A stretch of 64,000 nt of DNA. Origin: Candidatus Methanoperedenaceae archaeon. GTDB lineage: Archaea > Halobacteriota > Methanosarcinia > Methanosarcinales > Methanoperedenaceae. The notes under the pieces are model-generated. The model had not been told where the DNA came from. It made no database searches and saw only the letters and a list, made by a program, of their open reading frames with translations. The stretch spans positions 1 through 64,000 of the forward strand of contig CAVWCX010000024.1 of assembly GCA_963753595.1 (NCBI GenBank). Reading direction: 5' to 3'. Below are positions 10,204 to 40,627 of this stretch, one piece after another. Positions within the stretch are counted from its first letter, which is position 1, and each line of letters starts with the position of its first letter. The position numbers and the translations under genes were made by a program.

Positions 10204-11652
10204 ATGAAAAAGAAATTCAACAATAAAATACTTATTATCGGCTATGGCTCAGTTTCGCAATGCACCCTGCCTGTTTTACTGGCTAAGATCGATGTTCCGT
10301 TAAAAAACATTACCATAATTGATTTTGAGGACAAATCAAAATCCCTGACCAAATTTACAGACCAGGGATTAACATATGTTTGTGAAAAAATTACCCCGGA
10401 AAATTTAAACCAGGTATTGTCAAAATATGTGGATACTGGGGGTTTGCTCGTTGATCTTGCGTGGAATATCGGAGCTAATGATATTATTAAGTGGTGCCAT
10501 GATCACAATGTATTGTACGTAAATACTTCTGTTGAACTATGGAATCCCGTTGAGGGAATTTATACGAAAAGTCTGTTTGAAAAATCCCTGTATTGGCGGC
10601 AAATGCAGTTGCTGGAACTTTCCCGTGATTGGAAGGATGCGCCGACCGCTGTCGTTGACCATGGCGCTAATCCAGGTCTTATTTCTCACTTCGTCAAGCA
10701 AGGCCTGCTGGATATTGCAGCACGCATCAAGGCAGATAAGAAAGTTTCTTTGCAGGACGAGGAAGAGATCTGCAAATATGCAAAAAACAGGGATTTTCCC
10801 AGGCTCGCACGAAAATTAGGAATTAAAGTGATCCATTGCAGCGAACGGGATACGCAAATTACCAACCGTCCAAAGAAAGTTAACGAATTTGTAGGTACCT
10901 GGAGCATTGAAGGGTTATGGGAAGAAGGGACGGCACCGGCTGAATTGGGTTGGGGCACGCACGAGCAGAAATTGCCCCCTCTTGCAAATATTCCACCTGA
11001 CGGGCCAAAAAACCAGATATTTTTGCCTCAAATGGGCATTAATACATGGGTCAAATCATGGATACCGGATGAAGAAATTATCGGCATGATGATCCGTCAT
11101 GGTGAAGCATTCGGCCTCTCAGACCGGTTAACCGTCTGGGAAAATGGAAAGGCTGTCTACCGGCCTACTGTAAATTATGCTTATATGCCATGTCATGATA
11201 CGCTTTCTTCACTTCATGAATTGCGCGGCCGGAATTACGAACTCCAGCCCAGGATCAGGATCTTAAAAGATGAGATCATATCTGGAGAAGACACTCTCGG
11301 AGCGCTCTTGATGGGGCATGTTTATAATTCCTGGTGGACGGGCAGCTCTCTGGACATTGAAGAAGCAAGAGTTCTTGCTCCCGGCCAAAACGCTACTACC
11401 CTTCAGGTTGCTGCCGGTATTGTTTCTGCTATACTCTGGATGCTTGAAAATCCGCGGGAAGGCATTAAATTGCCAGACGACCTGCCTCATGATTTTATTC
11501 TCGATATTGCCAAACCGTATCTTGGTAAATTTATTTCAACCCCGTCGGATTGGACGCCTCTTAAAAACCGCAAAATATTTTTTAAAGAAAATCCGGCATC
11601 TAAATATAATCCCGACCCCTGGCAGCTTGAAAATTTCCTCTTTATAGATTAA
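10204..11652 (+). CDS. hss: Homospermidine synthase
   Basis: GYGSV Rossmann fold, HGANPGLISHF, SERDTQ, WSIEG, RHGE, RPTVNYAY and QNATTLQVA motifs. Confidence 0.88.
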   Translation: MKKKFNNKILIIGYGSVSQCTLPVLLAKIDVPLKNITIIDFEDKSKSLTKFTDQGLTYVCEKITPENLNQVLSKYVDTGGLLVDLAWNIGANDIIKWCHDHNVLYVNTSVELWNPVEGIYTKSLFEKSLYWRQMQLLELSRDWKDAPTAVVDHGANPGLISHFVKQGLLDIAARIKADKKVSLQDEEEICKYAKNRDFPRLARKLGIKVIHCSERDTQITNRPKKVNEFVGTWSIEGLWEEGTAPAELGWGTHEQKLPPLANIPPDGPKNQIFLPQMGINTWVKSWIPDEEIIGMMIRHGEAFGLSDRLTVWENGKAVYRPTVNYAYMPCHDTLSSLHELRGRNYELQPRIRILKDEIISGEDTLGALLMGHVYNSWWTGSSLDIEEARVLAPGQNATTLQVAAGIVSAILWMLENPREGIKLPDDLPHDFILDIAKPYLGKFISTPSDWTPLKNRKIFFKENPASKYNPDPWQLENFLFID

Positions 11653-11709
11653 TGATCACCAATATCAAGAATTAATAATATCACATACAATTTAATATCA
11701 AATACAATT

Positions 11710-12918
11710 ATGATCCAGAAAAAAATTGAACTTTTAAAGAAAATTGCACGAGAATACGGCACTCCCGTCTTTATTATAGATCATGAAAAAATAAGGGCAA
11801 ATTATCGTGAATTCAGGGAAAAATTGCCTGATGTCCAGGCATATTTCGCCGTTAAAGCCAATTCCAATCCTGAAATTGTCAAAACGATGTATGACATGGG
11901 CGCAAGTTTTGATGTAGCTTCTTTACCTGAATTTATGCTGGTTTTTGATAATATCAAACATATGCCTGATAAAGAGCGGCAGGATTTTATCTGGAATAAG
12001 ATCATCTATGCTAATACCATTAAGCCAGCCGATGTCCTGGCTAAGTTAAATGCATATAAAATTTTAGTTACTTTTGACAATATTGAAGAATTAAAAAAGA
12101 TAAAAAAACATGCTCCTGATGTTGGCCTGGTTTTAAGGATACGCGTGCCTAATACCGGTTCCATGGTCGAGCTGTCTTCAAAATTCGGAGCCCATCCCGG
12201 AGAAGCGGTTGATCTTATAGCCGAAGCCGTGAGATTGGGGCTTGGAGTTGAAGGAATCAGTTTCCACGTCGGCAGCCAGTGTAATAATTTTGATAATTAT
12301 TCGCAGGCTTTGAATTTTGCTTCCTCAATATTCAGGGAAGCAGAATTGAGAAATTATCCGATCGGGTTTATTGACAAAGAAGGCAAAAGAAGAAAGATCC
12401 TGGATATTGGCGGAGGCTTTCCGGTAAAATATACACCTGACGTAAGATCATTCTCAGACCTGTCTGAAATTTTGAATTCGGAAATAAAGCGTATGTTCCC
12501 CAACGATGATATTCAGGTCGTCGCCGAGCCCGGACGATTTATAGTGGCGACAGCCTGTACATTGGTCACGAAGATCATTGGCAAAGCTGTCCGTGACGGG
12601 AAAACATGCTATTACCTGAATGATGGTGTATATCATACTTTTTCCGGGCAGGTTTTTGATCACCAGCCCTATCCATTGCATTCCTTCAAGGGTGGAGTAA
12701 AGAAAGTCTGCGCAACATTTGGCCCCACCTGTGACGCTTTCGACACTATTTCCCTGTCCGATGAGCTGCCAGAAGACCTGCAAATCGACGACCTGCTTTA
12801 TGCTGAAAATATCGGCGCATATTCGATAGCTTCAAGCACTTATTTCAATGGTTTCCCGCCGGCTAAAGTGGTGCATTTGAATTTAATCGCAGATTCCAGA
12901 ACGCTTAAGGGACCCTGA
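11710..12918 (+). CDS. Type III PLP-dependent ornithine (lysine/ornithine) decarboxylase
   Basis: FAVKAN (PLP lysine), SFHVGSQ, DIGGGF, EPGRF and GPTCD motifs. Confidence 0.9.
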   Translation: MIQKKIELLKKIAREYGTPVFIIDHEKIRANYREFREKLPDVQAYFAVKANSNPEIVKTMYDMGASFDVASLPEFMLVFDNIKHMPDKERQDFIWNKIIYANTIKPADVLAKLNAYKILVTFDNIEELKKIKKHAPDVGLVLRIRVPNTGSMVELSSKFGAHPGEAVDLIAEAVRLGLGVEGISFHVGSQCNNFDNYSQALNFASSIFREAELRNYPIGFIDKEGKRRKILDIGGGFPVKYTPDVRSFSDLSEILNSEIKRMFPNDDIQVVAEPGRFIVATACTLVTKIIGKAVRDGKTCYYLNDGVYHTFSGQVFDHQPYPLHSFKGGVKKVCATFGPTCDAFDTISLSDELPEDLQIDDLLYAENIGAYSIASSTYFNGFPPAKVVHLNLIADSRTLKGP

Positions 12919-12949
12919 CATCAAAAAAGCCTGCAGTTGATGTTGTCCT

Positions 12950-13079
12950 CATATTTCGCACTTGATAAATTTATAATTTATCTATGAAATATGAGACTGA
13001 CAAAATGTAAGAAAATTGCATTTATTCAGACAGGATTAACAGGATCGACAGGATTTAGTCATCCTGTTTTTCCAATCTA
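12950..13079. repeat. ~130-bp direct repeat, copy 1 (copy 2 at 15275-15408)
   Basis: CATATTTCGC...TCTATGAAATATGAG...CAAAATGTAAGAAAATTGCATTTATT...GACAGGAT...GGATTTAGTCATC...TTTTCCAATCTA aligns between the copies by eye. Confidence 0.9.
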
Positions 13080-13313
13080 TTTCATCAGGAGAAAATAGAA
13101 TGGAATTTAAAAAAACATTACAAGTGGGATATTATAATATGAAAAATCGCTTTTATTTTATAAAAGATTTTCAGGATATGTCACTAAAATCGTATCCTGT
13201 ATATCCTGCGAAAGCCTGTTGGCAATGAACTTTGATTACAAAAAAATCGTTTTTTATAACACACGGTATGCATCTTTTCTATGGTGGCTATTTCTAGTGT
13301 GATATTTTTTATT

Positions 13314-13682
13314 TTATTCTTTAATTATTATTTTACTTTTCTTGCCATCAAAAGTAATTATGAAATGCTTCATCGCATTCCTACCTATCAATATTTCATC
13401 ATCAGAAGTATAATGAATCTCAACAGGAATTGTCTTATCTGCAATATTCAAATTGCACCAGGAAAAACCAACTTCAGCCCATCCCAGCGAAGTTCCAAGT
13501 TCAATTAATCCAATATCTAAAAAACCAAGATCATCCCACAGTACCTTTGGTAATGAACACCAATCCGATCCAGAATCTACGAGAGCAAGATGTTTTGATT
13601 TACGACTATTAAACGGATTTAAGATTTCAACTGGGATGAGTGGGATATCCCCTGTATATTTCCACTCCATCATCTCGCCCAC
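13314..13682 (-). CDS. Clan AA (retropepsin-like) aspartyl protease
   Basis: ALVDSGS catalytic motif and ILIGRN motif, 122 aa. Confidence 0.78.
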   Translation of the reverse strand: MGEMMEWKYTGDIPLIPVEILNPFNSRKSKHLALVDSGSDWCSLPKVLWDDLGFLDIGLIELGTSLGWAEVGFSWCNLNIADKTIPVEIHYTSDDEILIGRNAMKHFIITFDGKKSKIIIKE

Positions 13683-13909
13683 ACCAAAGGTTTATCAGAA
13701 TTAACATTTAAAAGATATAAATGCTTATGTAAAGCATCTGTTGAAATCCTTTGCATCAAAGTTAACATCTTATCTCTAGGTACAACATATAATACTTTTT
13801 TCTGATCGAGGTCTATTAGAACAATGTCTCCCTTGCGCTTTCTAATTTCTTCAATATGAGCTTCATATACCTCATGCGCAATTCTATTAGACTCTGAAAG
13901 TGCTGGCAT
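13670..13909 (-). CDS. Small hypothetical protein overlapping the aspartyl protease gene
   Basis: 79 aa, overlaps the protease start; the small-gene + retropepsin arrangement is common in archaea. Confidence 0.6.
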   Translation of the reverse strand: MPALSESNRIAHEVYEAHIEEIRKRKGDIVLIDLDQKKVLYVVPRDKMLTLMQRISTDALHKHLYLLNVNSDKPLVWAR

Positions 13910-14048
13910 AACAATATAAATGACCTATTAATAAATAACTTTATTGTAACTATAGCTGTGACCCGATTGTTAATGAGGTTGCATGCGCCTTACACTCCTA
14001 TGAAAAGCTGTATGGCATCAAACTGCACTGATGGGAACTTCAACCCTG

Positions 14049-14261
14049 TTACAAATACTTATCCAGCAGCTTCGGGATATCCTGCGAAAGCCTGTCGGCA
14101 ATGTACTTCAGGGCAACCCACATACCTTCAAAAGTCTTACCCGCTGAATTGATACTGTTTTTCATTATTGGAAGACCCCTGTCTATCCAGATCGGGAGTG
14201 TCATGACAACTAATGCAAGGATGAATAATATGAACATTAAGAAGATTTGTTTTGAGTTCAT
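14049..14261 (-). CDS. Small membrane-anchored hypothetical protein (likely start MNSKQ)
   Basis: One hydrophobic N-terminal helix; the upstream ORF extension overlaps a terminator hairpin. Confidence 0.45.
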   Translation of the reverse strand: MNSKQIFLMFILFILALVVMTLPIWIDRGLPIMKNSINSAGKTFEGMWVALKYIADRLSQDIPKLLDKYL

Positions 14262-27334: not shown

Positions 27335-27378
27335 CATACCGTAACGCGAAATAGATCGAAAAATTGCGTAACGGATTT
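27335..27378. repeat. Two copies of the SCGTWACGS palindrome, 27 bp apart
   Basis: CCGTAACGC at 27339 and GCGTAACGG at 27366. Confidence 0.75.
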
Positions 27379-27442: not shown

Positions 27443-27949
27443 ATGCTATCACATGACGAATTGATCTCCCTCATCAATGAAAAGCCTCCCCTTGTCGAAA
27501 AAATGATCGACCCTGATATCCAGGTACAGCCCAACGGTATTGAATTAACCCTGCAGCGTGTGGAATTTCATGATGGCCCGGGTTCTGTCGCTTTTGACAA
27601 CTCCGAAAGGAAACTCCCCCAGACAAAAAACCTTGATTTCGACAAGGACGGATGGCTGCATTTACCAAAAGGAAGCTATAAGATCGTATTCAATGAGTTC
27701 GTGAACATCCCTAAAAGCCTCGCAGCTATCGCAAAACCGCGCTCAAGCTTACTTCGGTGCGGCGTGACAGTGGAAACTGCCGTATGGGATGCCGGTTACA
27801 GCGGAAGGTCCGAGAGCCTTCTTGTGGTATATAATGAAAAAGGATTCAGGGTAAAAAAAGATGCGCGTGTGCTGCAGCTTTTGTTTTTCAGGCTTGGGGA
27901 AGAAGTCAGGAAAGGATATTCCGGCATATACCAGAATGAGAATGTCTGA
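27443..27949 (+). CDS. dUTPase / dCTP deaminase family protein
   Basis: QPNGIEL, PRSSLLRCG and AVWDAGYSG motifs; start MLSHDEL. Confidence 0.88.
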   Translation: MLSHDELISLINEKPPLVEKMIDPDIQVQPNGIELTLQRVEFHDGPGSVAFDNSERKLPQTKNLDFDKDGWLHLPKGSYKIVFNEFVNIPKSLAAIAKPRSSLLRCGVTVETAVWDAGYSGRSESLLVVYNEKGFRVKKDARVLQLLFFRLGEEVRKGYSGIYQNENV

Positions 27950-34949: not shown

Positions 34950-35186
34950 TATTGGTCTATTCAGTCATTTGGAATTTCCCAAATATCGCACAGCAGAACT
35001 TGAAAATGTGAATTGGTCATGTATCCCATATATACAAAATGATGGTGCTAATTTGGTCTAATTTTATTCACCAAAATGAATTGAACCCCCCTTAACATCC
35101 CCATATTCCTAAAATTACCATTATGGAACAAAACCTTTATCATTTATCGATACATTTACGGGGTACCCCCATCATTGAATCAATGT

Positions 35187-35259
35187 GCCTGGGTGGGGTA
35201 GCTGGTTATCCTATGGGACTGTGGATCCTACGACCCGGGTTCGAATCCCGGCCCGGGCC
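35187..35259 (+). tRNA. tRNA-His (GTG)
   Basis: Cloverleaf: acceptor GCCTGGG/CCCGGGC, D arm GGGT..ATCC, anticodon loop CT-GTG-GA, T arm CCGGG-TTCGAAT-CCCGG, discriminator C. Confidence 0.93.
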
Positions 35260-35286
35260 TATTGTTTTTATTTGGAGCTCTGCATA

Positions 35287-36254
35287 TGGCCAAATATAAT
35301 ATTTCAAGAATTATTAAGCCAAAAAAACAATATATTTTTATTTTACTGGCAGTAATAATTTTACTTTTTATTTTGGGTTCAGGCATATTTAAAACACAGG
35401 AAATACTTGAAAAACCAAAGCCCTCAGTTTCAATTGGTTGTGACAGGGTTTTATGGAAAGATACGGAAGAATTACTCGAAGCAACGGTCAAGAACATAGA
35501 TAATCCCTCATTTGAATGGAAATCAGACGGCACAAATATCGGTAATGGCCAGAAACTTTTACAAAAATTTGAGATAGGAGAGCACTCAGTATTGCTCAAT
35601 ATGACTTTCAATGACCAGACGCTTTCTGCAAAAAAATCCATTTTTGTCATTGATTCGGTAGATGGTATTACTATTCGCGAATATGCAGCTTCAAAAAACC
35701 AGTGGGGATTCCAGACCATGTTCAAAGGAAAAAATACAGGAGTTAAAGGGGTGATGATCTATATCGATTCATCTTCTCCATCAGAAGTAAATGCTTGCGG
35801 GGCACTCTCAACAAAAGCGCTTTTTTCAGGAAACCACACATGGACGGCAGAATACCGTGGTGCCCGGATAGCATACGGAACTTTCAATATCAAGGAAACA
35901 AGCGAACTGAAGATCGCCAGAATTGATATCGCGCCAAGCTATTCTGCTGGTAGTGAAGTTAAGGCAAAAATAATTCTTATGAATACAGGGTCTGTTGCGA
36001 TCACAGATTTTGAAACAAAGACTATTGCAATAAATAATGATTATGCCTGGATGGGAGATAAAGCAAAACGAGAATTTTCCGATCAATATAATGCAGATAT
36101 CCAGCCAGGTGCGTCATATGAGATCCCGATACAGATGACTATTCCAGAAAAAGTAAGTGGAATAAGACCATCTGGAAAATATAGTATTACAGTTAATTTA
36201 TTATTACATGGAAAAACAATTGATACAAAAATAGTATCAACGCAAGTCACATAA
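35287..36254 (+). CDS. Membrane-anchored secreted protein with Ig-like (PKD/CARDB-like) beta domains
   Basis: N-terminal TM, beta-rich body (FEWKSDG..., MNTGSV..., SGKYSITV); start MAKYN assumed. Confidence 0.65.
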
Positions 36255-36273
36255 GTTAAAATTAGGTTTCATT

Positions 36274-36479
36274 AATTCCTTTACAAAATTTTGTATATTG
36301 CTTCCCGTAACGGTATTTATCCACCAAAATCCCGTTACGCAATACATACAATAATTTCCCGTTACGCAATTGTGTATGTTGATTTCCGTAACGGTATTTA
36401 TGGACTGAAATTCCGTTACGGGATTTGACCAGAAAAATCCCGTTACGCAATTCGTCTAAAAAATTCCCGTTACGGGAAG
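36274..36479. repeat. Array of 17-bp palindromes with an exact 27-bp period and variable 10-nt linkers
   Basis: CCGTWACGS cores at 36305, 36332, 36359, 36386, 36413, 36440 and 36467, plus a degenerate copy at 36278. Confidence 0.92.
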
Positions 36480-36648
36480 TAAGTATAATATTTTTATTTA
36501 AACCTCTTATTTTAATTTATAGGACACGTTCTATAATCTGGCAAAGGTTAATCTATCCCTGGCAATAATTATCATTAGGATATTTTTTTGTTTTTAAAAA
36601 TATTTGCGTTTTTTGGGCAAAAAACACCCAAAAAAAGGCAAAAGCAGT

Positions 36649-36684
36649 AAAAACTGTATATAATATTTGTTATATACAGTTTTT
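36649..36684. other. dif-like tyrosine-recombinase site (11-6-11)
   Basis: ACTGTATATAA-TATTTG-TTATATACAGT; perfect arms extend to 15 bp; TATAA-N6-TTATA core as in archaeal dif sites. Confidence 0.7.
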
Positions 36685-36694
36685 TTGGCTAAAA

Positions 36695-37105
36695 ATGAAT
36701 CGAAATCTCTATTTGATGTTAGTAATATTTTATGCCGACGTGACCAATAAAAAATACATCAGAAAGAACTATATAACCTGCAGCAGATGCGGAAGAAAAA
36801 AAATCCATCATGCACATGGATTATGCAGTGGATGCTATATGTCGGTTCATCGAATAGAACAGATAAAAAAACATAACGCTGAAGCGTATCATAATATTCC
36901 CTACGATTTATACCTAAAAATAACAGAAAAATGCTACATATGCGGTTTTGATTCTATAGTTGAACTTCATCATATTGATGAAAACCATGAAAATATATCC
37001 TTGAATAACCTTGTCGGTTTATGTCCTAATCACCATGCTATGATCCATCATAGAGATTTCAATACAGAAATAAAAAAATTGATAACTTGTATTCAAATCC
37101 AATAA
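36695..37105 (+). CDS. Zn-ribbon + HNH endonuclease-like protein
   Basis: CxxC..H..GLCxxC N-terminal Zn module; CYICG...ELHHIDENH..N...NLVGLCPNHH HNH domain; exact start uncertain. Confidence 0.85.
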   Translation: MNRNLYLMLVIFYADVTNKKYIRKNYITCSRCGRKKIHHAHGLCSGCYMSVHRIEQIKKHNAEAYHNIPYDLYLKITEKCYICGFDSIVELHHIDENHENISLNNLVGLCPNHHAMIHHRDFNTEIKKLITCIQIQ

Positions 37106-37178
37106 ATCCAAAGCTCATTTATAAAATATTATAGGGATAATTATAATAATATCAAACTCCATTAATGAAAACTGATTT

Positions 37179-38009
37179 ATGATAGTAGATGAGCGTCTTA
37201 AAAAGCTTAACACTGAGGCAAAGTTGAGAGGCTTCTCACCTCAGACAACAAAAATGTATTTGTTTTATAATCAGAAATTACTTGAATATACAAGAAAGGA
37301 ACCAGCAGATATCACAGAAGATGACATAAAAGATTATCTGGGATCCAAACTTTCTGACGATTCACTTTCAAATGCTACGATAGCGCTAATAAAAGCTGCC
37401 TTTAAATTTTTTTATACAGAAATTCTTGGAAAAAATATCTCTCAAATAAAAACTCCAAAGAGGTCACAAAAACTTCCAATAGTCCTTAGCCGGACTGAGA
37501 TAAAAAACCTCATTGAAAAAACAGAAAATATCAAGCACAGGCTTATAATTGAACTCCTCTATTCCACCGGTTTGAGACTTTCAGAATGTATCAACCTGAA
37601 ATATTCTGACCTTGATCTAAATGATGGTATAGGCTGGGTTCGTTTGGGAAAAGGTTCAAAAGACAGAATTTTTATTATTTCTGAGGTATTCAAGAAAGAT
37701 CTCCTCGACTACAAAGAGAAAAATGGTTCAGATGGAAAAGGATACATATTTTTAGTAAATGGTAAAAAAATGACATATAGAGGCATTCAGCACGCCATAA
37801 AAGTATCCGCTTTGCGCGCCGGCATCGAGAAATCCGTGCATGTGCACACGCTGCGGCATTCTTTTGCAACACACCTTCTTGAGAACGGTGTCGATATAAG
37901 GAAAATACAAAAGCTGCTTGGGCATTCGAATTTACAGACTACGCAGATATACACACAGGTATCTTCTGAGGAGATAAAGAAGATCAAAAGCCCGCTGGAT
38001 ATGCTTTGA
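37179..38009 (+). CDS. XerA/XerD-like tyrosine recombinase
   Basis: Complete catalytic set: TGLRLSE (R), GKGSK (K), HTLRH, LGH and TTQIY; N-terminal SAM-like domain; no integron-specific insertion apparent. Confidence 0.93.
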   Translation: MIVDERLKKLNTEAKLRGFSPQTTKMYLFYNQKLLEYTRKEPADITEDDIKDYLGSKLSDDSLSNATIALIKAAFKFFYTEILGKNISQIKTPKRSQKLPIVLSRTEIKNLIEKTENIKHRLIIELLYSTGLRLSECINLKYSDLDLNDGIGWVRLGKGSKDRIFIISEVFKKDLLDYKEKNGSDGKGYIFLVNGKKMTYRGIQHAIKVSALRAGIEKSVHVHTLRHSFATHLLENGVDIRKIQKLLGHSNLQTTQIYTQVSSEEIKKIKSPLDML

Positions 38010-38019
38010 TGTTATAAAT

Positions 38020-38047
38020 AAAATATATAATAATATTTATATTATTA
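38020..38047. other. Degenerate dif-like site just downstream of the recombinase
   Basis: AAAATATATAA-TAATAT-TTATATTATTA; AT-rich, so it could be a chance match. Confidence 0.4.
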
Positions 38048-38329
38048 CTATTTTATCTCGCTTTGATGTTGGTCATATATCAGTCTTTCTTTTTCTTTCT
38101 TTAGTTCCATTTCCCTGCGAGCAATTGCTTTCATAGCTTCAGTAGGTTTATAGTTCAAATTGATCCTGTGTTTCTGCTCCCGGGTATATACAACATAACC
38201 ATACAACAGGAATGCAACTGTTGCGATCGGTATCAGAAATACCCATCCGACAACAAAACCCATAAAAGCTAACCCTATCAATGAGACAAACCCAAGTCTT
38301 AACTTTCTATTCTTAAAGATTTCCTTCAT
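38048..38329 (-). CDS. Small membrane protein
   Basis: 93 aa, hydrophobic N-terminal hairpin, charged C-terminus; GGGAG SD. Confidence 0.65.
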   Translation of the reverse strand: MKEIFKNRKLRLGFVSLIGLAFMGFVVGWVFLIPIATVAFLLYGYVVYTREQKHRINLNYKPTEAMKAIARREMELKKEKERLIYDQHQSEIK

Positions 38330-38425
38330 ATCGAAACTCCCTTTTCATTACATTTCATATTTCTACTCCATAGTGATAATTGTTTCGTAGGAGAACGAAC
38401 TAACTATTGAATATAATTTGTATTT

Positions 38426-38469
38426 AATTGCGTAACGGAATTTTTTTGAATGATTAGCGTAACGGAATT
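38426..38469. repeat. Two 17-bp palindromes, 27 bp apart
   Basis: AATTGCGTAACGGAATT (38426) and ATTAGCGTAACGGAATT (38453). Confidence 0.85.
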
Positions 38470-38526
38470 TATAGAATATCTTTGAAAGATTAGTCAGTAA
38501 TATTTCCCATTTTAATATGATGAGTA

Positions 38527-38618
38527 AGTGGGCAGAAAGGGGGATTATGGTGGTATAGAAAAAATTTCTCTGCCCACTACAATTCGTATATATACGAACA
38601 AAACTATATATAGTTTAC
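38527..38618 (-). ncRNA. Putative small hairpin RNA unit 1 (TATA + TTCG-N8-CGAA operator + stem-loop)
   Basis: Minus strand: AAACTATATATAG..TTCGTATATATACGAA..GTAGTGGGCAGA-loop-TCTGCCCACT; paralog at 38665-38765. Confidence 0.45.
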
Positions 38619-38664
38619 GTTTCTTGTAAAATCACATATTATCCTCTAAAACCTGGTATAGGAG

Positions 38665-38765
38665 GTAGTGGGCTTTTGGGATTTATGGTGGTGTGGTATC
38701 GAAAAAAAATATTTTTCTGCCCACTACAATTCGTATATATGCGAACCAAAGTATTTATAGTTTAC
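38665..38765 (-). ncRNA. Putative small hairpin RNA unit 2
   Basis: Minus strand: AAACTATAAATAC..TTCGCATATATACGAA..GTAGTGGGC-loop-GCCCACTAC. Confidence 0.45.
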
Positions 38766-38863
38766 TGTCATAATCATTATAAGTATTAATATGCATGAAT
38801 ATCTGACCTGGAACACCTGTTGCTTGTATCGTTGCTCGTTATAATTTCACGATTCTTATAACA

Positions 38864-38931
38864 AAATCCGTAACGGCATTTCTAACAAAAAATTGCGTAA
38901 CGGCATCTTTATATATTCCCGTAACGCAATT
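38864..38931. repeat. Three 17-bp palindromes (27- and 24-bp spacing)
   Basis: Cores at 38868, 38895 and 38919. Confidence 0.85.
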
Positions 38932-38939
38932 AGAATATC

Positions 38940-39185
38940 ATGACTGAACGTAAATATACCCGCTGGAAAAAATGCCTTATATGTGATGATTTTGTAAAAC
39001 TCATGTTCCCGGAGGACGCAAAGGATATGCTCATGATCTACGAACCCGTAGAAGGAATGAGCGATGAATCCGGGAACTGGAAAAAAAAACAAATGGGATA
39101 TATACACCGGTCATGTCTTCTAAAAGCAGCATCACTGAAGCCAAACAATGAAGAAAGAAACAGCAGTAGTTCAGAGGTCGTATAG
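38940..39185 (+). CDS. Small Zn-finger-like hypothetical protein coupled to ubiD
   Basis: CxxC...HxxC; stop overlaps the ubiD start. Confidence 0.6.
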   Translation: MTERKYTRWKKCLICDDFVKLMFPEDAKDMLMIYEPVEGMSDESGNWKKKQMGYIHRSCLLKAASLKPNNEERNSSSSEVV

Positions 39186-40627
39186 TGGCATATAAGGATT
39201 TAAGGGAATTTATTGAAGTTCTCGAAAAACGAGGACTTCTGAAGCGGATAAAAACAGAAGTAAGTGCAGAGCTTGAGATCACTGAAATTCTTGACAGGTG
39301 TATGAAAAATAACGGCCCTGCACTTCTTTTTGAAAATGTATTAGGCTATAAGATGCCTGTATTTGCAAATGCGTTCGGTACAATGGAACGAATGTGCCTT
39401 GCACTTGACGTAAATGATCTTGATGAAATCGGTGCAAGGATAAAAAAGCTCATGGAATTTGAAGCCCCATCCGGATTATGGGAGGGAATAAAAAAGCTGC
39501 CTGAGGTAGTTGAACTTACATCATTTGCCCCCAAATATGTAAGATCAGGCCCGTGCAAAGAAGTAATTCTTAAAGATAAATTTTCACTTGATGATTTCCC
39601 TGTATTGAAATGCTGGCCCGGGGACGGGGGGCGCTTTATAACGCTTCCTCTTGTATTCACAAAAAACCCAAAAACCCGGAAGCAGAACGTAGGAATGTAC
39701 AGGATGCAGGTATATGATGCAAAAACAACAGGCATGCACTGGCATATCCATAAACACGGGGCGAGGGATTACGCTGATTCAGCAGGTAACGGAAAAATCG
39801 AGGTTGCCGTCGCTATCGGGGCAGATCCTTCTGTTGTATATTCAGCAACTGCGCCGCTTCCCGATAATATCGATGAGATAATGTTTGCCGGGTTCCTCCG
39901 TAAAAAGAACGTGGAGCTTGTTAAATGTGAAACTGTTGACCTTTATGTCCCCGCACATGCCGAAATTATCCTTGAAGGATATGTGGATGAAAAAGAGCGC
40001 CGCACAGAAGGACCTTTCGGCGACCACACAGGATATTATTCACTCGCAGATGAGTTCCCGGTATTCCATATAACATGCATTACACACCGAAAGAATCCCA
40101 TTTATCATGCCACCATCGTGGGAATACCGCCAATGGAAGACGCATATCTTGGAAAAGCAACAGAAAGGATCTTCCTTCCGCTCATGAAAGCCCAGCTTCC
40201 TGAAATTGTCGATGTCAACCTGCCTGTTGAAGCTGTTTTCCATAACCTGTGCATTGTATCCATAAAAAAGCGGTATCCAGGACATGCAAAGAAAGTCATG
40301 TTCGCACTCTGGGGAATGGGACAGATGATGTTCGCTAAGACCATAATCGTGCTTGATGATGATGTGAATATCCAGGACATGAGGGAAGTTCTCTGGGCAA
40401 CAACGACGCGAATGGATCCTGCCAGGGATGTTACGATCATTGATAATGCGCCGACAGATACGCTTGATCATGCTTCGAAAATGGCCAACCTCGGTTCCAA
40501 AATGGGAATTGATGCCACACGAAAAGGACAGGATGAAGGATTCAACCGGGAATGGCCTGATGCTTTGAAAATGGATGCAAGAGTAAAAGCGCGGGTGGAT
40601 ACGATATGGAAGGAGCTCGGATTATAA
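39185..40627 (+). CDS. ubiD: UbiD-family decarboxylase (menaquinone biosynthesis type)
   Basis: WPGDGG, NVGMYRMQ, EGPFGDHTGYY and LDHAS..GSKMGIDAT motifs. Confidence 0.92.
   Translation: MAYKDLREFIEVLEKRGLLKRIKTEVSAELEITEILDRCMKNNGPALLFENVLGYKMPVFANAFGTMERMCLALDVNDLDEIGARIKKLMEFEAPSGLWEGIKKLPEVVELTSFAPKYVRSGPCKEVILKDKFSLDDFPVLKCWPGDGGRFITLPLVFTKNPKTRKQNVGMYRMQVYDAKTTGMHWHIHKHGARDYADSAGNGKIEVAVAIGADPSVVYSATAPLPDNIDEIMFAGFLRKKNVELVKCETVDLYVPAHAEIILEGYVDEKERRTEGPFGDHTGYYSLADEFPVFHITCITHRKNPIYHATIVGIPPMEDAYLGKATERIFLPLMKAQLPEIVDVNLPVEAVFHNLCIVSIKKRYPGHAKKVMFALWGMGQMMFAKTIIVLDDDVNIQDMREVLWATTTRMDPARDVTIIDNAPTDTLDHASKMANLGSKMGIDATRKGQDEGFNREWPDALKMDARVKARVDTIWKELGL

Follow-up and report, generated by a model that had tools for sequence, protein, structure and literature searches.

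Phased palindromes, probably operators, around the dif-xerA locus of Methanoperedenaceae

The stretch of DNA analysed here (the window) covers positions 1 to 64,000 of contig C24 from the genome of a Candidatus Methanoperedenaceae archaeon (G000; 2.89 Mb in 37 contigs, 40.5% GC), and this report concerns a locus about 1 kb downstream of its tRNA-His gene, where the gene for a XerA tyrosine recombinase and a palindromic dif site lie between arrays of a short phased palindrome (Table 1). G numbers designate genomes, L numbers fetched loci, g1, g13, g14 and g15 genera of the family, and C numbers contigs. A family scan of the neighbouring genes returned housekeeping functions (ClpB, dcd, EndoIII, purD, TBP, L15e, UbiD, GPN GTPase, UbiA and Rpr2), and an Rfam scan of positions 35000-40000 matched tRNA-His alone. 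As the initial annotation of this DNA had stated, the 28 neighbouring open reading frames (ORFs) scanned contained no cas, rep or transposase family. The consensus layout in the family begins with a divergent dcd gene and continues through array A, a nearly invariant 40-nt AT-rich block and about 100 nt of variable DNA to dif; it then runs through a TATA box and xerA to array B, which lies immediately past the stop codon, and ends with a 140-nt element present one to three times, array C and the genes zn81 and ubiD. The initial annotation had grouped the palindromes, two dif-like sites, an HNH gene, the recombinase, a small membrane gene and paired small-RNA-like units into one candidate system. 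While dif, xerA and the arrays do recur family-wide, the HNH gene, the membrane gene, the second dif-like site and the small-RNA-like units are not part of it. The synteny that it had suggested examining, of HNH gene, recombinase and array together, was accordingly seen for the recombinase with the array across the family, but extended to the HNH gene in a small minority of genomes only.

Table 1. Features of the locus and of the dcd region, in window coordinates.
Feature	Coordinates	Strand	Description
dcd-upstream pair	27335..27378		two 17-bp sites 27 bp apart (27339/27366); position weight matrix scores 16.3 and 20.9
dcd	27443..27949	+	dCTP deaminase; Pfam DCD, E 8e-20
Array A	36274..36479		eight 27-bp units, 7 intact palindromes and 1 degenerate
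AT-rich block	36489..36530		about 40 nt, 13-20 nt past the last array A unit; single match in genome G000
dif	36649..36684		perfect palindrome, 15-nt arms 100% complementary, 6-nt spacer
HNH ORF	36695..37105	+	Zn-ribbon and probable HNH nuclease ORF between dif and xerA
xerA	37179..38009	+	276-aa tyrosine recombinase, chromosome-dimer resolvase
Second dif-like string	38020..38047		3 arm mismatches; one of 9 loose genome matches
Membrane ORF	38048..38329	-	93 aa, variable insertion between xerA and array B
Array B	38426..38469		two units, sites at 38430/38457
Two copies of ~140-nt element	38500..38772	+	hairpin, then TTCGTA-N4-TACGAA, then TATA-like palindrome
Array C	38864..38931		three operators (putative), sites at 38868/38895/38919, upstream of zn81
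zn81	38940..39185	+	81-aa orphan CCHC zinc protein, candidate palindrome-binding regulator
ubiD	39185..40627	+	UbiD-family decarboxylase

The palindrome was first recognised as the motif SCGTWACGS, and the earlier count of 12 copies in three clusters within 36274-38931 was confirmed. The window as a whole holds 16 matches, whereas 100 dinucleotide-preserving shuffles gave 0.48 on average and never more than 3. Of 36 matches in the whole genome, the only four clusters all lie on C24 between 27.3 and 38.9 kb, and the palindrome is thus tied to this locus, an even scatter not being seen. Alignment of 128 palindromes from the window and 13 congener loci defined the full unit as the 17-bp palindrome AWTNCCGTWACGGNAWT with weak A/T-tract shoulders, in which positions +/-4 to +/-8 were conserved (T at -6 in 116 of 128 sites, for example) and the outer positions were near background. 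Adjacent sites were spaced by exactly 27 bp in 62 of 86 cases, by 26 bp in 11 and by 24 bp in 6, and the spacers of about 10 bp that separate the units were not conserved in sequence. Judged from this alignment, selection acts on the palindrome and its phase and not on the spacer. A weight-matrix scan of the genome returned 22 matches with a score of at least 16, of which 14 lay at this locus and 6 of the other 8 within long ORFs. The intact sites of array A follow one another from 36305 to 36467 in exact 27-bp steps, preceded by the degenerate eighth unit (36274-36290), and an 81-bp duplication of three units is visible within the array. Array B consists in most genomes of three to four units placed directly past the xerA stop codon. 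A CRISPR array was considered and rejected, the 27-bp period being the sum of a 17-bp palindrome and about 10 bp of spacer, with no cas family among the scanned neighbours; an integron was likewise considered and dropped.

The phased-pair pattern was present in 49 of 53 genomes of the family, whereas a reversed control pattern occurred 0-1 times per genome, and in a sample of the class it was found in 31 of 32 family genomes against 1 of 268 outside the family. Among viral contigs, the 16 loci with a phased pair were all unrelated repeats and none had three or more units at 27 bp. A metagenome scan for triple cores gave 80 loci, of which 8 had the full palindrome context and the other 72 were unrelated 27-bp repeats; all six of the eight full-context arrays that had an identifiable neighbour adjoined either a Xer gene or ORF330. 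ORF330 also adjoins array A in G004 and G002. No description of the motif or of its arrangement was found in the literature searched on archaeal dif, XerA and Methanoperedens, supplementary dif alignments aside. The phased operator arrays, the conserved block and an orphan zinc protein are what is new here, the Xer/dif module itself being already known.

The gene between the arrays had been annotated as that of an intact tyrosine recombinase, and this was borne out. Its product matched Pfam Phage_integrase (E 5.8e-44) and passed the cut-off of the NCBIfam equivalog recomb_XerA_Arch (NF040815; 261.7 bits against a cut-off of 220), and the catalytic R, K, HxxR, H and Y residues all aligned with those of P. 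abyssi XerA (4a8e, E 4.5e-46). Orthologues with 75-88% identity were present in 16 of 18 congeners sampled, the other two being a genome with a fragment at a contig end and a 66%-complete genome without XerA, and a further five of five genomes, including two of the sister genus g14, also encoded one. The other six integrase matches in G000 comprised frames of 351-424 aa and one 95-aa fragment, and those that matched XerA did so with at most 30% identity over most of its length. By sequence, the recombinase is the core archaeal XerA inherited vertically, and not a mobile integrase. The closest relatives of this XerA outside the family were found in DPANN Aenigmatarchaeota (L070-L073; 54-57% identity, compared with 41% in G023 among the other Methanosarcinales searched), a closeness that hints at lateral transfer of the xerA-dif module. 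All four of these loci kept CGTATAA-N6-TTATAYG upstream of xerA and lacked arrays; thus dif-xerA is an older module and the arrays are an addition made in Methanoperedenaceae. G021 and G026, complete genomes of family f4, had no match above the XerA equivalog cut-off, and XerA appears to be patchy in the order.

Upstream of xerA, the perfect dif-like site of the initial annotation was confirmed. The core at 36653-36680 has the form 11+6+11 with inner arms RTATAA/TTATAY (TATAA-N6-TTATA), and 36649-36684 is the only one of nine genomic RTATAA-N6-TTATAY matches without an arm mismatch. Between genomes, the inner six bases of each arm were invariant, and the outer four or five bases varied yet stayed complementary, with five pairs changed on both sides. 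The core has the 11-bp inverted repeats, 6-bp spacer and TAA-N6-8-TTA signature of archaeal dif, the last of these being described as the most conserved archaeal dif feature in the part of PMC11840125 consulted. The site at 36649-36684 therefore fits an archaeal dif, and binding of XerA and recombination are predicted there. A likeness of the array half-site to the outer dif arm was considered and dropped, the outer dif arms varying among genomes and the array sites being constant. Hybrid dif sites with arms of two types (TGTC/CTGC) were noticed in three or four loci, including L024, L027 and L038, and are what crossing-over within the spacer between dif alleles would leave. On another contig of G000, a half-dif with a degenerate left arm lies between convergent ORFs (C23:29212-29239); its right arm and T-run, TTATACGCAGTTTT, agree in every base with the dif arm seen most often in other Methanoperedens species, and the site is perhaps a relic, or else a secondary target of XerA. 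The second, degenerate dif-like site that had been proposed downstream of xerA did not hold up. It carries three arm mismatches and had no counterpart in 13 congener loci, and it is thus a match at chance level in AT-rich DNA.

Between array A and dif, the AT-rich block was nearly invariant in an alignment of 15 sequences. Its 12-nt core TTATTTTAATTT was found in 23 of the 28 Methanoperedenaceae xerA loci of a species-representative collection, which overlaps in part with the other congener genomes, so that the sets are not independent. The block is possibly promoter DNA, and no conserved RNA structure was found between it and dif. Of the same 28 loci, 27 contained dif; 23 had phased sites upstream and 26 had them downstream, 21 loci having both, and the median was 8 sites per locus (range 2-13). 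Arrays flanked xerA, with a dif-like palindrome upstream, in 12 of 13 congener loci and in five of five further loci, two of them from g14, and the single genome of the sister genus g13 had 2+2 sites at 26-bp spacing. The end of array A lay 139-244 bp from dif in 15 of 18 loci, and the remaining three distances (317, 380 and 880 bp) reflect insertions or a wrong reading orientation. In G002 an array of nine units, the block and dif were found together, and xerA lay on another contig with its TATA box and without sites or dif; the array-block-dif unit of this genome (C61, L043, 3494-7708) is followed by an operon whose last gene encodes an MCM helicase.

The Xer/dif core agrees with the archaeal system as described in the available text of Cortez et al. 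(2010, PMC2958812), with which it shares a single XerA, 11-bp inverted repeats, a 6-bp spacer and TAA-N6-TTA. That paper also noted repeats flanking dif and proposed that they might bind a partner. In the Thermococcales dif and xerA are not adjacent, whereas in Methanoperedens dif precedes xerA by 60-110 bp and directly adjoins its TATA box, an arrangement which, as far as the text of the two papers goes, is closer to those of the Sulfolobales (PMC2958812) and of Haloferax and Halobacterium (PMC11840125). The phased 17-bp arrays and the conserved block are not described in the text of PMC2958812, its supplementary dif alignments aside.

The second constant home of the palindrome is the promoter of zn81. 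The start codon of ubiD overlaps the stop codon of zn81, and the two genes thus form one regulated operon. The last two operators of array C are spaced by 24 bp with the TATA box of the operon, TTTATATA (38908-38915), exactly between them, and the end of the last one is placed 9 nt ahead of the zn81 ATG. This site-TATA-site geometry, or at least one site within 130 nt, was found in 22 of 23 distinct zn81 upstream regions, and in five of five genomes that have zn81-ubiD and xerA on separate contigs, one or two sites persist at the zn81 promoter. Because the geometry around the TATA box is conserved and the sites accompany zn81-ubiD to its new positions, we read the palindrome as a promoter operator, a role which the initial annotation had missed; the palindrome is probably the operator of a lineage-specific regulator whose binding we infer from the placement of the sites. 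When 14 loci were compared, only xerA was common to all and only zn81 and its downstream genes recurred in more than half, the other ORF families shared across these loci being spurious antisense ORFs. No DNA-binding family was found beside intergenic single sites. The promoter of zn81 and the DNA around dif are the two constant homes of the palindrome.

The product of zn81 is a candidate for the protein that binds the palindrome, on circumstantial grounds. Four residues (C12, C15, H56 and C59) were invariant. In a set of 5.8 billion proteins, its homologues fell into 56 clusters with identities of 65% or more, those with a name all coming from Methanoperedens or an unclassified archaeon. When 1.84 billion representatives were searched with a profile, no convincing relative beyond this family emerged. 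The gene was present in g1, g13 and g14 and was not found in G064 (g15, 67% complete), nor in G023 and G021 of other families, and the UbiD orthologue of G023 (68% identity) has no zn81-like gene upstream. No Pfam, NCBIfam or Protein Data Bank (PDB) sequence match was obtained, and an Atlas search returned unnamed viral clusters only. Since zn81 is an orphan, is found only where the palindrome is and is encoded behind its own operators, it is the best candidate for the binder. A partial parallel exists in the Sulfolobales, where, according to the portion of a preprint consulted (bioRxiv 10.1101/2025.10.16.681758), the regulators aCcr1-3 bind short palindromes at -50 to 0 of promoters and overexpression of aCcr2 lowers the expression of xerA and segAB. 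As described there, however, aCcr1-3 are ribbon-helix-helix proteins with hundreds of targets and another motif, whereas the Methanoperedens regulon is tiny, its sites are arrayed and the candidate regulator is a CCHC zinc protein without relatives.

We consider it about an even call that this is a chromosomal dimer-resolution locus at which a lineage-specific dimeric regulator, possibly zn81, binds the palindromes, represses zn81-ubiD and controls the promoters that flank dif-xerA. Under this explanation, a presumably dimeric regulator would bind the 17-bp palindrome, and at the zn81-ubiD promoter two occupied operators would exclude TBP/TFB, so that the operon is repressed. Sitting side by side on the 2-9 phased sites of each flank, the regulator would coat the intergenic DNA around dif and thereby control the promoters there, namely those of the conserved block, xerA, the small-RNA-like unit and sometimes dcd, with whatever effect this may have on recombination at dif. 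In outline, this agrees with one of the two readings offered by the initial annotation, a chromosome-resolution centre built of dif, XerA and protein-loading repeats, in that a core XerA, an upstream dif and phased palindromes are found family-wide; its list of components was too wide.

Several observations weigh against the regulator model just described or against the part given in it to zn81. Seven to nine perfectly phased operators are far beyond the usual need of promoter control, dcd stands without adjacent sites in L022 and L030 (two genomes), and the zn81 promoter of G031 (g13) has no site. The array of G002 stays with dif and not with xerA, which points to a role linked to dif rather than to the gene. 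The zn81 protein has no recognisable DNA-binding fold, its AlphaFold2 model having a mean predicted local distance difference test score (pLDDT) of 61 and yielding nothing at E <=0.001 in a Foldseek search against the PDB; its overall isoelectric point of 7.7 is near neutral, and, being translationally coupled to UbiD, it could be an enzyme subunit instead. A search for RNA sequencing runs that contain the locus returned none. Finally, the shared restriction of zn81 and the palindrome amounts to a single evolutionary event, because essentially one clade is concerned.

The number of sites, their strict phase and the fidelity of the arrays to dif suggest a further cis role on the chromosome; the amplification around dif may serve to control transcription, to form a roadblock, to assist Xer recombination or to titrate the regulator. 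A bolder proposal, which we regard as speculative and improbable, joins several of these: zn81 and its amplified operators would be a dif-linked device, without a counterpart known to us, that traps forks or SMC and so brings termination and XerA synapsis to dif in the absence of FtsK. The regulator might also be titrated by the last-replicated sites, which would make the expression of zn81-ubiD, xerA and sometimes dcd depend on replication having been completed. Titration by chromosomal sites is known from E. coli, where datA titrates DnaA.

It is also conceivable, if on balance unlikely, that the arrays are mainly mechanical. In that case the protein-DNA tract on both sides of dif would be a roadblock or architectural element that stalls SMC, replication forks or transcription and confines termination, a domain boundary and XerA synapsis to the dif-xerA interval of about 1.2 kb, the zn81 promoter being a side use. 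The arrays bracket dif-xerA at most of the 28 loci, their constant partner is dif while dcd and other neighbours vary, and the array, block and dif of G002 remain together without xerA. The number of sites and their strict 27-bp phase, which exceed the normal needs of an operator, would also be accounted for. Gene neighbourhoods differ widely between congeners on both sides of the arrays, and an inversion breakpoint inside array A would explain the pair of sites upstream of dcd. Smc and ScpA are both encoded in G000; the Smc gene (C4:10731-14235) is read in two adjacent frames, 10731-12050 and 12052-14235, which may reflect a frameshift or an assembly error. There is a precedent for a nucleoprotein tract at an archaeal dif, by analogy: in T. 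kodakarensis the non-coding DNA around dif, and not dif or XerA, was reported as necessary and sufficient for an Smc boundary, and in Haloferax and Halobacterium dif-like sites upstream of the xerA operon lie near boundaries (Yamaura et al. 2025, PMC11840125, in the sections available). In those sections, however, the T. kodakarensis binder TrmBL2 is a nucleoid protein that forms filaments and recognises the shape of DNA non-specifically, whereas the Methanoperedens sites are discrete, phased, sequence-specific palindromes that also serve as probable operators. A mechanical role is further weakened by the palindromic form of the sites, which gives them no polarity, and by the operators that follow zn81-ubiD away from dif, which imply that the binder is at least also a promoter regulator. 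GC skew, GC3 skew (at third codon positions) and gene-strand bias showed no turn at xerA, either in C24 of G000 or in C3 of G050; as the cdc6 origin control showed no turn either, these measures, computed on C24 of G000 and on two 328-kb contigs of G050, are uninformative for the position of the terminus.

The short and fairly regular distance from array A to dif recalls another kind of Xer site. In the plasmid-borne cer and psi systems, protein-binding DNA of about 150-250 bp on one side of the Xer core is occupied by ArgR, PepA and ArcA, and there is no repeat array. By comparison, the Methanoperedens arrays could be accessory sequences that impose a resolution-only topology on the synapse and so replace the missing control by FtsK. 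We judge this quite improbable: P. abyssi XerA is reported to recombine dif without accessory factors (PMC2958812, in the text available), and in Methanoperedens, unlike at cer and psi, further arrays lie about 0.9 kb off, beyond xerA, and at promoters unrelated to dif.

The phasing of the sites also bears on a centromere-like or origin-like function, in which a segregation or initiator protein would bind the palindromes as iterons. Plasmid centromeres such as sopC of F and parC of R1 consist of short phased palindromes or iterons on which copies of a small dimeric protein, the repressor of its own operon, sit next to one another, and phased palindromes that double as operators of a small autoregulated protein would have the same anatomy; the AT-rich conserved block that adjoins array A could be added in its favour. 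The likeness does not extend to the genes. The Methanoperedens arrays are chromosomal and placed at dif, the downstream operon encodes a UbiD-family enzyme, and among the 28 ORFs scanned there was neither a partition gene of ParA/SegA or ParB type nor an Orc1/Cdc6 gene, the only P-loop neighbour being the GPN-loop GTPase. A replication origin at the locus was rejected, the two cdc6 genes lying on other contigs (C37 and C3) and inverted repeats like the origin recognition box (ORB), by its general consensus, surrounding an AT-rich stretch upstream of cdc6-1 on C37; the palindrome is unlike those repeats. A centromere or origin thus seems to us very improbable.

The other reading in the initial annotation was a mobile Xer/dif cassette, or an island at tRNA-His, carrying the HNH gene and xerA. 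It had in its favour the tRNA-His gene 1 kb upstream and the variable insertion of the HNH and membrane genes, and it is largely refuted, so that we give it hardly any credence. The single XerA orthologue is conserved in congeners, at 75-92% identity, and across the family, the second dif-like site is not conserved, and adjacency to tRNA-His is not kept even between congeners. No 3' repeat of tRNA-His occurs in the window, as had been noted before. The array type is absent from the 16 viral loci, and the metagenome arrays with an identifiable neighbour all adjoin Xer or ORF330. The excision or inversion that had been envisaged between 36653 and 38047 was not seen, none of the 15 contig joints listed from related strains linking the two sites. 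A low-depth joint from 36397 to 38940 most likely represents array C of a relative aligned onto array A.

The HNH ORF had no Pfam match at E <=0.01 (HNH_2 reached E 1.4), and its best PDB match was the HNH domain of IscB (9nvu, E 3e-4), with CxxC...HH...N...CPxHH aligned over residues 78-124. Support for the earlier assignment as a Zn-HNH gene is weak, the ORF having a zinc ribbon and a probable HNH motif. It was found in 8 of 53 family genomes, in one copy each and always between dif and xerA, and a related-strain contig in which 692 bases replace 36664-37814 is consistent with its absence; the ORF is accessory and limited to a subclade. The small membrane gene, which had been counted among the components, was present in 4 of 55 fetched loci, a set in which some genomes were fetched twice, and contigs of related strains from two runs skip it (joints 38010-38376 and 38011-38425).

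The 140-nt element had been described as a pair of small-RNA-like units. The two units in the window are indeed paralogous, with 90% identity over 60 nt, but they belong to a dispersed family with copies on two other contigs of G000 (two copies at C2:4.8-5.1 kb and one at C20:44.9 kb). The hairpin is formed by GTGGGCAG...CTGCCCAC. The element lies 3' of xerA in 15 of the 28 loci and had no Rfam match, a single compensatory change was seen in 27 copies, and from its sequence it could be an RNA gene or promoter DNA. The motif TTCGTA-N4-TACGAA, which we take to resemble the boxes of the methanogen regulator MsvR, occurs at 38583-38598 and 38730-38745 in the window and at C2:4896 and C2:5046 elsewhere in G000.

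The dcd gene is a frequent but inconstant neighbour of the arrays, being found beside them in 14 fetched loci, some of which represent the same genome twice. In many congeners it stands divergently beside array A, while in the window it has the orientation of xerA, stands 9 kb to the left and retains two operators 65-108 bp 5' of its start. An inversion of about 27.3-36.27 kb, one of whose breakpoints fell within array A, would account for this placement, and the pair upstream of dcd is probably a fragment of array A removed by that inversion.

It is still an open question by what means archaea bias Xer recombination to resolution and, lacking FtsK, keep the terminus organised; the sole functional lead so far has been the DNA around dif that builds an Smc boundary in Thermococcus. 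The present locus provides discrete, family-wide elements around dif, namely a 17-bp palindrome in 27-bp register, a 40-nt block and a candidate binder, which are amenable to work in vitro with synthetic DNA and recombinant protein although the organism is uncultured. If the binder were confirmed, it would constitute with its sites an orthogonal operator-repressor pair from a methane-oxidising archaeon, and the array itself is a very specific cis-regulatory marker for the chromosomes of Methanoperedenaceae.

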